From Escherichia phage VEc74: a DNA stretch of 64,000 bases. Position numbers and translations under genes: made by a program. The stretch lies in sequence record MT932213.1. One strand, given 5' to 3'. This document shows positions 2,759-6,935 of the stretch, in pieces. The notes beneath the pieces were generated by a model. That model saw only the letters and a list, made by a program, of their open reading frames with translations, did not search any database and had not been told where the DNA came from. The first letter of the stretch is position 1; each line of letters begins with the position of its first letter.

Positions 2759-2764
2759 GCTATA

Positions 2765-3373
2765 TTATTTATTACGTGAAAAAGACTGTTCTATCAATTC
2801 TGGACACTTTCGTTCTATCCATTTTCTAGCTTTTTGTGGGCTTATACCTATTATTTTAGCAGCTTTACTAACCCATCCAAATTTAGAATAATCGATTTTA
2901 ACTAATTCTTCGTAAATTTCATCAGTTAAAATCTTTTCATTAATATTTACCAGTAAATGATATAATTTATTATCATTAGCAATTTTAATGAATCTTTTAT
3001 AGTTTCCGCCTTTACTTAAGCCTAATGAAGTAATTGCAGATGATATAGTAGCCGAATTTAATAGTGCGTTTAAAATTTCTTCATCACTAACATTATAACG
3101 CTTTTTATTATTTTTAATATTTTTACCAGCAAAAGTATCAGTTTGCGAATGGCAGTTTGGACATAATAATCTTAAATTTGATTTAAGATGATTTTTGTTA
3201 TTTCCATCAATATGGTCTAATTGCAGAACAATATGCTTATTTTGCCATTTTGAAATTTTACAAATTGCACACTCATATGGAAAAATATTTTCTTTTATTA
3301 TTTTGTCTTTCAGCTTTCCTGTACTAAAATTTGGATGTTTTCCTTCAAAAATTTCAGCTAATTTAGTATCCAT
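2765..3373 (-). CDS. HNH-family homing endonuclease, about 202 aa
   Basis: Motif LQLDHIDGNNKNHLKSNLRLLCPNCH (His-Asn-His with CxxC) plus upstream CxxC (YECAICK); stop codon 7 nt from the 5' end of tRNA-Leu; start trimmed from the TTG of ORF 2765..3397 to ATG (MDTKL). Confidence 0.75.
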   Translation of the reverse strand: MDTKLAEIFEGKHPNFSTGKLKDKIIKENIFPYECAICKISKWQNKHIVLQLDHIDGNNKNHLKSNLRLLCPNCHSQTDTFAGKNIKNNKKRYNVSDEEILNALLNSATISSAITSLGLSKGGNYKRFIKIANDNKLYHLLVNINEKILTDEIYEELVKIDYSKFGWVSKAAKIIGISPQKARKWIERKCPELIEQSFSRNK

Positions 3374-3472
3374 AATATGATTCCCAATTATTAACAAAGG
3401 CTCTCAAATAAGAACCCTTGATGATAGAGGGTATTAATCAGTGCGGTATGAGTTAATAATAACAAATAATTC

Positions 3473-3997
3473 TTAAAGCAAATTAAACATTTTAACGGTC
3501 GGCAAAACAATTTCTTCTTCTATATAAGAGTATTTAACACTCTCAACTACACGCAAAAAATCATAATCATAATACTCAGAAGCATTACCTAAAATATTAG
3601 TAAGTCCTTCAAGCACTTTATTACCATTCACAAAGAATAAGTCAAATACACGTTCTTCGTCTTCTTCGGATTTATTACCAAGGTCAACTTCTATGTCAAA
3701 GACCTTTTTAATGAATTCTGGATAAAGTTGTTCTGAGAACAGTCCTTCAACCAAGTATTCATAAATAAAAAGCGATTGCTCGCTGAACAAGCCATTACCA
3801 CAATAACGTTCAGCTTTAGTACTAGAATGTCTGCTTTTAAACTTCTTTAAAAGATATTGGAACTGTAAGATTTCATGCTCTTCTACGCCAAACAGTGTTT
3901 TAGTTTTATAATTGTCACCATCATTTTCCCAGGTAGTGACATCAATTACGTAACCCTGCGGAATTGTAGTACCTAAACAAATATTCATTTTCACCAC
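3473..3997 (-). CDS. hypothetical protein, 174 aa
   Basis: Six-frame ORF, overlaps next ORF by 7 nt (operon-like); no motif recognised. Confidence 0.55.
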   Translation of the reverse strand: MVKMNICLGTTIPQGYVIDVTTWENDGDNYKTKTLFGVEEHEILQFQYLLKKFKSRHSSTKAERYCGNGLFSEQSLFIYEYLVEGLFSEQLYPEFIKKVFDIEVDLGNKSEEDEERVFDLFFVNGNKVLEGLTNILGNASEYYDYDFLRVVESVKYSYIEEEIVLPTVKMFNLL

Positions 3998-4281
3998 GCT
4001 GCATTAATATAAGTATATTTAATACATTCAAGACTTAAAGGATTCTTGAAAATATCATATTCAAGAGGACCTTTTTCTGTTTCAATAAAGAAATCAAAAT
4101 TTACTGTATTAAATTTACGGTCTTCCTTCACTAATTTAACCTGAGAAGATGAACGGTCAATGTAAACCTTTTCAACTTCAAAACATGTTAAAATGCCATA
4201 ATCATCAATCAAGGCTTTAGCTGCTTCTTGATCATATTTATATCCATTTTCAACGGATGATACTTTCGCATAAAGAATCAT
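3991..4281 (-). CDS. hypothetical protein, 96 aa
   Basis: Six-frame ORF, tightly packed with neighbours. Confidence 0.5.
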   Translation of the reverse strand: MILYAKVSSVENGYKYDQEAAKALIDDYGILTCFEVEKVYIDRSSSQVKLVKEDRKFNTVNFDFFIETEKGPLEYDIFKNPLSLECIKYTYINAAW

Positions 4282-4283
4282 TA

Positions 4284-4706
4284 TCAGCCTTCATCAACAA
4301 TAGTATGAGTATGGGCATTTACGATTTGCCACCAATCAAAGCGATTAGAACCATACATCGGTTTGTTTTCATTTTCTTTGATAATATCACGGAGTTCATC
4401 TTCGGTAGCGGCTTTCGCGATTAAATCAGCATATCCACCACGAGGATAATAATTATCACCTGCAAAAAGTAAAAAATTTGGTGTAATATTATTGAACTCT
4501 TCAAGAGTAATAACTGTTCCTGATGGTAGTTGAACAATCTCTACATAGTTATATCCTAATTTTTGAGCAGCATCTACTGCTTCAAGCAGAGTATCATGAG
4601 CCCGTCCTATTTGGCAATTTGGCTTTTTAGATGGATTAGCCTGATAATCCGCGTACACTTTATACATTCTATTCACCTTTAGAAATTTTATCCATAACGA
4701 TAGCAA
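4284..4706 (-). CDS. hypothetical protein, 140 aa (possibly 127 aa from MYKVYADYQ)
   Basis: Six-frame ORF; its 5' end overlaps ORF 4669..4854, so the internal ATG at 4665-4667 is a plausible true start. Confidence 0.55.
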   Translation of the reverse strand: MLSLWIKFLKVNRMYKVYADYQANPSKKPNCQIGRAHDTLLEAVDAAQKLGYNYVEIVQLPSGTVITLEEFNNITPNFLLFAGDNYYPRGGYADLIAKAATEDELRDIIKENENKPMYGSNRFDWWQIVNAHTHTIVDEG

Positions 4707-4854
4707 TTAAACCAATTAAAAATGCTACTACAAGTGAAAACACATTTTCTGCTGTAGTTAATAATCCGCATATAAATCCAACAAACATTGAAAAACTAAA
4801 AGCGGAAGCAGAAATTGCAATAGCAGCATTTCGAATTAATTCACAACGTTTCAT
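4669..4854 (-). CDS. small hydrophobic (membrane-like) protein, 61 aa
   Basis: Strongly hydrophobic sequence (AIAISASAFSFSMFVGFICGLL...LVVAFLIGLIAIV); preceded by the conserved leader and early promoter at 4883-4912. Confidence 0.5.
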   Translation of the reverse strand: MKRCELIRNAAIAISASAFSFSMFVGFICGLLTTAENVFSLVVAFLIGLIAIVMDKISKGE

Positions 4855-4882
4855 TTTATTCTCCTCAGTAGTTGATAGGGTA

Positions 4883-4912
4883 ATAGTATCACAACTAAAA
4901 CCCTATGTAAAC
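4883..4912 (-). promoter_or_regulatory. T4-type early promoter with stem-loop leader
   Basis: Minus strand reads GTTTAC, 18 nt, TACTAT, followed by leader ...ctatcaactactgaggagaataaaATG. Confidence 0.6.
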
Positions 4913-4915
4913 AAT

Positions 4916-5140
4916 TTATTCAACACCAGCGGCTTTCAAAAGTTTTTTAAGATTGGCAACACCTTGAGCAGAAAATGTGACCTTGCCACCTTTTTCACTG
5001 ATAGAACCAACCAATTTAGCAAGTTTATCATTAGGAATTTTTTTAAAATCAGACAATGTTCCATCAAAGGTTTTTGAAACAAAAGGCAGTTCGTCTTCGC
5101 GTCTTTTAGCTTCTACAATAAATTCTTTAGATGTTTTCAT
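4916..5140 (-). CDS. internal-protein-like (Ip) protein, 74 aa, N-terminal capsid-targeting sequence MKTSKEFIVE
   Basis: N-terminus matches the T4 internal-protein targeting consensus MKT(Y/F)(Q/K)EFI.E with Glu at a gp21 protease-type cleavage position; own early promoter. Confidence 0.7.
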   Translation of the reverse strand: MKTSKEFIVEAKRREDELPFVSKTFDGTLSDFKKIPNDKLAKLVGSISEKGGKVTFSAQGVANLKKLLKAAGVE

Positions 5141-5168
5141 TTTATTCTCCTCAGTAGTTGATAGGGTA

Positions 5169-5198
5169 ATAATATCACTACCCCATCTAAAAGTAAAC
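5169..5198 (-). promoter_or_regulatory. T4-type early promoter with stem-loop leader
   Basis: Minus strand reads GTTTAC, 18 nt, TATTAT; RBS GAGGAG before the ATG at 5140. Confidence 0.6.
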
Positions 5199-5208
5199 GG
5201 TTTATAAA

Positions 5209-5517
5209 CTATTTTATTCCGCGTGATGCAATTGTGTTCTGCCGTTTAACGCCAGTTTGTTTAAAGTCATGATTGTCGATTTGATCGGTACGAGCAACTC
5301 CGAATGATGATTTGATCTTAGCTTTAGATCCTTTAGTTATAGAAATAAACATCTCGGAAGCCCCTTTCTTAAAGTCCGAGGCGATTACTTCAACGCCGTT
5401 CTTAGCAAGTGACTTCAGAATTGCCTCCGCATACTCATCATCAAGACTCGCCTGAGTATTAATAACGAATGTCTTTGGCGCAGCCGCTTCATTGATAAAT
5501 TCTTTAAATGTTTTCAT
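5209..5517 (-). CDS. internal-protein-like (Ip) protein, 102 aa, N-terminus MKTFKEFINEAA
   Basis: Capsid-targeting-like N-terminus; divergent body; own early promoter. Confidence 0.7.
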   Translation of the reverse strand: MKTFKEFINEAAAPKTFVINTQASLDDEYAEAILKSLAKNGVEVIASDFKKGASEMFISITKGSKAKIKSSFGVARTDQIDNHDFKQTGVKRQNTIASRGIK

Positions 5518-5547
5518 TTTATTTTCCTAATTAATTTTGATGAGATA

Positions 5548-5577
5548 ATAGTATCACTACCCTATTTAAAAGTAAAC
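5548..5577 (-). promoter_or_regulatory. T4-type early promoter
   Basis: Minus strand reads GTTTAC, 18 nt, TACTAT; the -35 overlaps the stop codon of the upstream Ip-like gene. Confidence 0.6.
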
Positions 5578-5850
5578 TCATTTTAAATAAATTGCGTATT
5601 TTTTATAACCCGCTGACTCATGACGAAGACCCTTATCATTAGCAAAACGCTCAATGTTGTTAATTTGATTCTGATCAAGTTCAGAGATGTCAAACACGAA
5701 AAAGTTACGTTTGTTACCAACTGTTATATAGTCAGTTAAATCAATATCATATAGGTAATTGATGTCAGCAATCAAAGTCTTGACAGCTTTGCTAATTTTT
5801 ACTTTTTCGTTAAAAGCAGCTTCAGCAATAAATTCTTGATACGTTTTCAT
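5578..5850 (-). CDS. internal-protein-like (Ip) protein, 90 aa, N-terminus MKTYQEFIAEAAF
   Basis: ORF-track 5578..5910 extends into the promoter; true ATG at 5848-5850 follows the conserved leader; N-terminus matches the T4 IPI-type targeting sequence as I recall it. Confidence 0.7.
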   Translation of the reverse strand: MKTYQEFIAEAAFNEKVKISKAVKTLIADINYLYDIDLTDYITVGNKRNFFVFDISELDQNQINNIERFANDKGLRHESAGYKKYAIYLK

Positions 5851-5878
5851 TTTATTCTCCTCAGTAGTTGATAGGATA

Positions 5879-5908
5879 ATAGTATCACTACTAAAACCCC
5901 GTGTAAAC
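5879..5908 (-). promoter_or_regulatory. T4-type early promoter
   Basis: Minus strand reads GTTTAC, 18 nt, TACTAT. Confidence 0.6.
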
Positions 5909-5920
5909 AACTTTGTGAAA

Positions 5921-6178
5921 TTATTTTAAATCTTCTAATCGTTTCTTCATCTTAGAACCGTTCTTAGCGATTTCGCCTGCATCAGAGCATAATGCTAAAA
6001 GCGCTTTAACTTTAGTTTGGTCTCCTTTAAAAGATGAAGGATCAACAGCAGCAGCAAGTTCTTTAATACGAGAGAAAAGACGCTCAGCTTCAGCTAAAGC
6101 CATTCCAAGCTTTACTTCCATACCGTGGGAAGATTCAGTAATAGTAGTTTTTGTAGCAAACTCTTTGAAAGTTTTCAT
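5921..6178 (-). CDS. internal-protein-like (Ip) protein, 85 aa, N-terminus MKTFKEFATKTTITE
   Basis: Capsid-targeting-like N-terminus; own early promoter. Confidence 0.65.
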   Translation of the reverse strand: MKTFKEFATKTTITESSHGMEVKLGMALAEAERLFSRIKELAAAVDPSSFKGDQTKVKALLALCSDAGEIAKNGSKMKKRLEDLK

Positions 6179-6208
6179 TTTATTTTCCTAATTAATTTTG
6201 ATGAGGTA

Positions 6209-6238
6209 ATAGTATCACTACCTCATCAGCATGTAAAC
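6209..6238 (-). promoter_or_regulatory. T4-type early promoter with hairpin GATGAGGTA...TACCTCATC around the -10
   Basis: Minus strand reads GTTTAC, 18 nt, TACTAT; inverted repeat read directly. Confidence 0.6.
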
Positions 6239-6250
6239 AACTTTGTGAAA

Positions 6251-6935
<685 letters not shown>

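Follow-up and report, generated by a model that had tools for sequence, protein, structure and literature searches.

A conserved accessory gene block between the internal-protein genes and the tRNA array of Escherichia phage VEc74

In phage T4, the open reading frames (ORFs) trna.2, trna.3 and trna.4 (NP_049746, NP_049747 and NP_049748; PHROGs 2023, 1411 and 1692) lie between the internal-protein (Ip) genes and the transfer RNA (tRNA) genes. The corresponding block of Escherichia phage VEc74 (sequence record MT932213.1) was analyzed here within a stretch of 64,000 nucleotides (nt), termed the window. Four minus-strand ORFs span positions 3473–4854 in the ORF listing. By comparison with annotated relatives, CM8, RB32, RB69 and T4 among them, three are identified as trna.4, trna.3 and trna.2, and the fourth as RB32ORF135c/RB69ORF151c, called ORF171 below. 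Since these genes were already catalogued, having carried the label of conserved hypothetical ORFs ever since the description of the T4 genome, and since near-identical copies are common in hundreds of sequenced phages, the finding itself is an ordinary one. An earlier note on this DNA had described the block as uncharacterised; it was right that the block is free of motifs but overlooked its identity with named T4 ORFs. New details are the predicted hairpin of trna.4, the swapped N-terminal domain of trna.3, and the ORF171 family, with its invariant motif and its frequent location beside tRNA arrays. With moderate confidence, the block is read as a translationally coupled early operon that leads the tRNA unit and encodes four non-essential accessory proteins, which most probably bind host components.

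Identity, selection and distribution of the four genes

The segment 2700–5600 matched 886 phage records, headed by Shigella phage CM8, Escherichia phage MLF4 and Yersinia phage phiD1 with about 97% identity, and VEc74 is a T4-like member of the genus Tequatrovirus. The gene order is that of classical T4, all on the minus strand: tRNA array, block, Ip genes, 57B, 57A and genes 1, 3 and 2. As first reported, the block lies between an HNH endonuclease gene (2765–3373) and the Ip genes (4916–6178). From the Ip side, it consists of trna.4 (4669–4854, 61 amino acids (aa), matching phrog_1692 over residues 1–61 of 61 with an expectation value E of 1e-33), trna.3 (4284–4667, 127 aa; phrog_1411, E 4e-55), trna.2 (3991–4281, 96 aa; phrog_2023, E 3e-48) and ORF171 (3473–3988, 171 aa; phrog_2290, E 7e-69). 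The positions initially given for the four ORFs stand, but two of the lengths do not. Alignment with homologues moved the start of the ORF called as 174 aa to the ATG at 3988 (MNICLG...), and that of the TTG-initiated ORF called as 140 aa to the ATG at 4667 (MYKVY...). After this revision, the intergenic gaps are 1–2 nt, and the Shine-Dalgarno-like sequence of each gene sits within the preceding gene.

Each block protein has one full-length PHROG match (E 1e-33 to 1e-69). Pairwise ratios of nonsynonymous to synonymous substitution rates (dN/dS) against the CM8, RB32, Killian, T4 and RB69 orthologues are 0.07–0.36 for all four genes, a range that holds for pairs with dS of 0.7–1.3, synonymous sites being near saturation in the RB69 pairs. 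Because of these ratios and the full-length matches, the four ORFs are true genes under purifying selection and not chance ORFs. The products of trna.4, trna.3 and trna.2 show full-length similarity to the T4 families, and the genes occupy the same slot. Homologues of trna.3 and trna.2 are tagged PF26894 and PF27001, respectively, in the protein database, and those of ORF171 carry no Pfam tag. Scans of the four proteins against Pfam, NCBIfam and PADLOC gave nothing above noise (the local Pfam set did not contain PF26894 and PF27001), and PDB sequence searches with single sequences and family profiles returned zero matches, which agrees with the initial remark that no motifs are recognisable.

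The genes trna.2, trna.3 and trna.4 were found in 798, 760 and 778 phage records, respectively (503 of the latter at 95–99% identity), ORF171 in 572, and the core deoxynucleoside monophosphate (dNMP) kinase, gene 1, in 1556 (685 at ≥60% identity). The block is thus present in about 780 of 1556 dNMP-kinase-carrying records, mainly Tequatrovirus and Mosigvirus. These counts imply that trna.2, trna.3 and trna.4 occur almost throughout Tequatrovirus and Mosigvirus, and that roughly half of the wider T4-like group lacks them. Among close relatives, ORF171 has a scattered occurrence: it is present in T2 and RB69 and lacking in T4 and Bas37. Even so, it reaches T4-like phages of Klebsiella, Enterobacter and Aeromonas as well as jumbo phages such as GAP32.

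Occurrence in essentially all Tequatrovirus and Mosigvirus records, together with purifying selection, is what could be expected if T4-like phages kept trna.2, trna.3 and trna.4 as conserved core or housekeeping genes. However, in the supplementary transposon tables of HIDEN-SEQ, a 2025 preprint (10.1101/2025.11.20.689424), the three T4 genes are classed as 'Non-essential', and so are their Bas37 homologues bas37_0257, 0258 and 0259. About half of the phages with a dNMP kinase do without the trna genes, ORF171 is missing from both T4 and Bas37, and none of the ORFs showed homology to a known function. A core function is very improbable, the transposon data removing the housekeeping scenario. 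The block products are non-essential accessory proteins, a status that had been proposed from the sequence and is upheld by the T4 and Bas37 data, by the record counts and by the presence/absence polymorphism of ORF171. In a literature search, trna.2, trna.3 and trna.4 were encountered by name only in supplementary tables, with no discussion in papers.

Predicted expression and host interaction

The early promoter announced upstream of the block is real at the sequence level. A promoter scan, together with a pattern search, located a T4-early-type sigma-70 promoter, GTTTAC-N17(TG)-TACTAT, at 4883–4912 of the minus strand, directly upstream of trna.4. It fits the T4/PST consensus TTTACW-N17-TAYWAT of promoter-early stem-loop (PeSL) elements (PMC4122927). 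A PeSL-like cassette of 70–80 nt, combining promoter and ribosome-binding site, is present in five copies, one before trna.4 and one before each of the four Ip genes. The copies found by repeat search (4822–4912, 5108–5198, 5485–5577, 5818–5908 and 6158–6238) are 76–91% identical, and the repeat takes in the first codons (ATGAAA) of each downstream gene. The PeSL shuffling cassettes of T4-like phages are reportedly treated in work by Arbiol from 2010.

The block would form the protein-coding 5′ part of a T4-type tRNA transcription unit, in which this single early sigma-70 PeSL-type promoter would drive trna.4, trna.3, trna.2 and ORF171 in that order. The 1–2 nt spacers suggest that the four genes are translationally coupled. 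The transcript probably runs on through the inserted HNH gene into the tRNA array, because no terminator is predicted from the promoter onward except weak structures in ORF171; the terminator scan of the block gave only two weak stem-loops, inside that gene (3771–3792). Early timing and co-transcription with the tRNAs are likewise predictions from the sequence. No family match was obtained within the block by an Rfam search. A perfect T4-type late-promoter core, TATAAATA, is present on the minus strand at 4235–4242, inside trna.2 and about 250 nt upstream of ORF171. It is probably fortuitous, since the overlapping codons (GYKYD) differ in other alleles (GYESD).

Functions are inferred for all four proteins. 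Most likely, they would bind host components stoichiometrically at an early stage of infection, serving host takeover or counter-defence, and would not act by catalysis. Such roles are plausible in view of the acidic soluble proteins, the lack of enzyme signatures and the swappable domain of trna.3. They also find support in the position of the block between the Ip genes and 57B, both of them proven loci of counter-defence; 57B is the nuclease Acb1 (PMC9117128). This position makes the block a sensible target for defence-panel screens. In comparisons with known anti-defence proteins of solved structure (such as Acr proteins, Dmd, Ocr and sponge proteins), ORF171 and trna.3 showed no significant similarity of sequence or fold, and neither has any known fold as modelled. 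The initial proposal of host-takeover or anti-defence accessory genes is thus sustained as to their accessory nature, but not by any link of homology or fold for these two proteins.

The mosaic structure of trna.3 would be the strongest individual argument for a role in host interaction. In sliding-window comparisons with T4, RB32 and Killian, nucleotide identity is 95–100% over trna.4, falls abruptly to 28–55% over 4479–4667, amounts to 80–93% over the rest of trna.3, and is back to 95–100% in trna.2. The divergent stretch encodes the N-terminal domain (residues 1–63), a hypervariable, allele-swapped cassette with at least three alleles and a dS of about 1.0, against 0.05–0.17 in the neighbouring genes. 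The full trna.3 is less than 60% identical to the VEc74 copy in 452 of the 760 records. The C-terminal domain (residues 64–127 plus stop, 4284–4478) carries conserved motifs and is nearly invariant (NFLLFAGDNYYPxGGY...FDWWQIVNA). It forms by itself a 70-aa protein in some Salmonella phages, and sequences weakly related to it occur in three further PHROGs and in phages of Pectobacterium, Bacillus and Brevundimonas. The protein alignment distinguishes at least two types of the N-terminal domain. Two domains are apparent both in the alignment and in the AlphaFold2 model built from the family alignment, with a predicted local distance difference test (pLDDT) score of 84.9. An internal duplication was considered, as both halves of the model have a β-β-α-β-β arrangement, but it was rejected with an hhalign probability of 0.03 between the two domains. 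Where a protein surface has to follow a variable target in the host, a sharply bounded module swapped within near-identical flanks is to be expected, and such swapping is a pattern typical of host-interaction genes. In this two-domain protein, presumed to be cytoplasmic, the N-terminal domain would be the specificity-determining surface, and its swapping points to a host-specific interaction.

The other partners in this presumed host interaction are of different types. The trna.2 product is a very conserved acidic protein (isoelectric point 4.8; mean column identity of 87% over 16 cluster representatives; dN/dS 0.08–0.25), ORF171 an acidic protein of a phage-only family, and trna.4 a predicted two-helix hairpin of the inner membrane. 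The strong hydrophobicity noticed in the 61-aa ORF is borne out by a grand average of hydropathy (GRAVY) of 1.18 and a maximum 19-residue Kyte-Doolittle mean of 2.35. By hydropathy, two membrane segments are predicted, at about residues 10–32 and 38–54, separated by a short polar turn (TTAEN). The N-terminus is basic (MKR...R8) and the C-terminus charged. From the positive-inside rule, both termini are predicted to be cytoplasmic (N-in/C-in).

A membrane protein of this kind might be a superinfection-exclusion or immunity-type factor, as the earlier note had suggested. Like T4 Imm, it would act at the inner membrane to block lysis from without or the entry of DNA. The likeness to Imm and to other small early membrane proteins of T-even phages lies in the small size, the early-type promoter and the predicted membrane helices. 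In addition, trna.4 is the first gene behind that promoter and is highly conserved (dN/dS 0.07–0.30). The difference from Imm is that trna.4 has no sequence relationship to annotated exclusion or immunity families in PHROG and Pfam: its sole match in these collections is phrog_1692, which bears no such annotation. T4 already encodes Imm and Sp for superinfection exclusion, which counts against a further factor. In the transposon data, trna.4 is non-essential with no phenotype reported, and numerous unrelated functions are compatible with a 61-aa membrane hairpin. Beyond its small size and hydrophobicity, nothing links trna.4 to superinfection exclusion, and such a function is unlikely.

Several points weigh against the coupled operon of host-binding proteins that is favoured here. 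The main text of the HIDEN-SEQ study (10.1101/2025.11.20.689424) makes no mention of the trna genes, and the part of its supplementary comparison tables that was covered lists no significant conditional phenotype for them. The products of trna.2 and trna.4 are very conserved, unlike typical arms-race proteins. The invariant cluster of polar residues in ORF171 (E21, N22, D23, D25, N65 and R146) may serve catalysis or the binding of a metal, and not be a surface for partners. The activity of the promoter and the presumed read-through to the tRNAs are deduced from consensus matches and from classical T4 work, reportedly that of Broida and Abelson from 1985.

The ORF171 family and tRNA genes

ORF171 is 83–97% identical over its full length to the RB69 and RB32 proteins, whose genes are likewise placed between trna.2 and the tRNAs. 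It is an ordinary member of the RB69ORF151c/RB32ORF135c/44RRORF127c family (phrog_2290), without material difference, and has both the W-E-N-D-G/A-D hairpin and the R-V motif before the last strand. A search of 1.84 billion representatives with the ORF171 profile yielded 1085 clusters at 50% identity with E ≤ 1e-3, and the matches listed are all single-domain proteins of about 120–200 aa. The 54 members that were sampled all belong to phrog_2290 and are free of Pfam domains. Across these 54 diverse sequences, E21, N22, D23 and D25 are invariant, and W20, G12, G34, F50, G64, N65, R146 and V147 nearly so. Profile searches with the family found no Pfam model and no match to a solved structure.

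The AlphaFold2 model of this acidic protein, built from the family alignment, has a pLDDT of 88.0 and a predicted template modelling (pTM) score of 0.83. WENDGD forms the tip of an N-terminal β-hairpin. Uncharacterised phage proteins were the only matches to the model in a BFVD search. The core of the model, a three-stranded sheet and a helix, superposes onto the uracil-DNA glycosylase inhibitor p56 of phi29 and VMY22 over 50–53 residues with root-mean-square deviations of 2.3–3.1 Å. This covers nearly the whole length of p56 (56 residues), and both proteins are acidic. The likeness is a weak lead at most and was treated as no match.

The family appears to be essentially absent from cellular genomes and confined to phages. 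A scan of 185,579 species genomes with a degenerate DNA motif gave 15 stretches, of which three are clear family members, all on contigs from metagenome bins. One of them is on a 43-kb contig binned as 'Bacilli' (L102, 1427–6958), where the distance from a 10-tRNA array to the family gene downstream of it is about 1.9 kb. This contig probably stems from a phage and was wrongly assigned to a bacterial genome.

The neighbourhood of the family was analyzed in 80 IMG/VR loci, grouped into 48 lineages at 50% identity. Clustering of the same-strand ORFs around the 80 loci for a conserved protein partner returned only T4 syntenic genes, 57B being the top one with 10 lineages. An ORF family typified by L013 6881–7324, which presumably resembles NADAR/YbiA-type proteins, is found on the same strand close to ORF171 homologues in six lineages. 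On a 139-kb viral contig (L068, 5396–5713), the ORF171-family gene is followed at once by a predicted phage transfer-messenger RNA, with 11 tRNA genes around.

These neighbourhoods bear on the idea that the function of ORF171 is tied to tRNAs. The gene would travel with phage tRNA islands, and its product would guard the tRNAs from host nucleases or toxins, or aid their expression or maturation, the acidic WENDGD hairpin being the active or nucleic-acid-mimicking element. tRNA genes are present within 5 kb of the family gene in 23 of the 48 lineages, always on the same strand, and within 600 nt in 13; the commonest protein-coding neighbour, 57B, reaches only 10. No T4 syntenic marker is found in 12 of these 23 lineages. 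The placement of the gene also varies with the lineage: upstream of the array in Tequatrovirus, inside it in Klebsiella and Enterobacter T4-like phages, GAP32-like jumbo phages and a 183-kb contig, and just downstream of a tRNA in 200-kb and 97-kb contigs. Contig L102, one of the three clear matches from the cellular collection, fits the same association. In a crude control with 120 random positions from IMG/VR, not one had a tRNA at a distance of about 5 kb or less. The proper background is that of large tRNA-bearing phages, for which geometry suggests 7–15%; with rates of 9–15%, the non-T4 lineages give a binomial P of 6e-5 to 6e-3.

However, small accessory ORFs are known to accumulate in the tRNA regions of large phages, so that the true background may be higher, and with a background of 25% the non-T4 lineages give no significant signal. 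Only four non-T4 lineages have a tRNA within 600 nt of the family gene. T4 and Bas37 express their tRNA arrays without ORF171, and the model has no match to an RNA-binding or nuclease fold. Because 25 of the 48 lineages have no tRNA within 5 kb, and because T4 does without the gene, a tRNA-linked function is rated as a real but minority possibility beside the binding of host components.

A bolder combination, in which ORF171 represents a structurally new, phage-exclusive family associated with tRNA islands, and trna.3 a modular counter-defence protein whose N-terminal domain chooses the host factor, is considered doubtful. If it were true, ORF171 might, for example, use its WENDGD hairpin to protect tRNAs against anticodon nucleases of the host or other defences that target tRNAs. 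The statistical link of the family to tRNAs could bear on how large phages protect their translation supply against tRNA-targeting immunity. As found, the importance of the block is small, the trna.3 mosaic and the ORF171 family being the parts worth following.

Flanking genes and comparison with known systems

Downstream of the block, a nine-gene tRNA array was delineated with ARAGORN and Rfam on the minus strand at 2004–2758, with tRNAs for Arg, Asn, Tyr, Met(CAU), Thr, Ser, Pro, Gly and Leu. Compared with that of T4, the array has additional Asn and Tyr tRNAs, lacks that for Gln, and does not contain segB. Next to it is the HNH homing-endonuclease gene (2765–3373, minus strand, 202 aa; phrog_14736, E 6e-124, with a weak match to Pfam HNH). 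In the alignment over 2759–3386, this gene takes the exact place of tRNA-Gln, which is present there in T4 and RB32. A 7-nt stub of the tRNA 5′ end remains at 3380–3386, and both sides of the insertion are near-identical to T4. The exact replacement indicates that the phage lost tRNA-Gln to the mobile endonuclease.

ORF171 and the HNH gene are adjacent in both VEc74 and CM8, and each is variably present among relatives, as might be expected if ORF171 were cargo of the endonuclease in a selfish mobile cassette. Yet ORF171 occurs without the HNH gene in RB32 and RB69, and the HNH gene without ORF171 in Bas37. Moreover, the HNH insertion has sharp boundaries of its own and replaces tRNA-Gln only. 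As the two genes vary independently, the cargo idea was rejected as hardly credible.

Between the block and the tRNA array, DNA alignment delimits an untranslated minus-strand leader of about 86 nt (3387–3472). It is near-identical in T4 and RB32 despite a different upstream gene (ORF171 in VEc74 and RB32, trna.2 in T4). It may contain a site for processing or a second tRNA promoter.

On the other side of the block, the four Ip genes (4916–6178, minus strand) belong to PHROG families of internal head or virion proteins and have one cassette each. Genes of the Ip slot inhibit type IV restriction. The first one (4916–5140, 74 aa) is 'Ip8' in the CM8 annotation and occupies the slot of the anti-McrBC gene bas37_0260 in Bas37. 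Assignment to the Bas37_0260 type was rejected: with the Killian 77-aa protein, which has the same slot and length as bas37_0260, only the N-terminal capsid-targeting sequence (MKTxKEFIxE) is shared. Further along, the 57B homologue (6251–6709) is labelled 'RNA ligase' in PHROG and in the RefSeq annotation. This label is a propagated annotation error, T4 57B being the nuclease Acb1 directed against CBASS, the antiphage signalling system that is based on cyclic oligonucleotides (PMC9117128).

The repeated early-promoter cassette that flanks each Ip gene, with its last copy heading trna.4, resembles the PeSL shuffling cassettes of T4-like phages (Comeau 2014, PMC4122927). The difference is that the four block genes share one unit behind the last cassette and have no individual flanking cassettes. 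The closest described system is the T4 locus, to which the block corresponds in gene order, strand and location between the Ip genes and the tRNAs. VEc74 trna.4 is 98% identical to that of T4, trna.2 93%, and the C-terminal domain of trna.3 about 90%. The N-terminal domain of trna.3 is another allele, and the whole protein is 57% identical. The T4 locus has neither ORF171 nor the HNH gene, and keeps tRNA-Gln.

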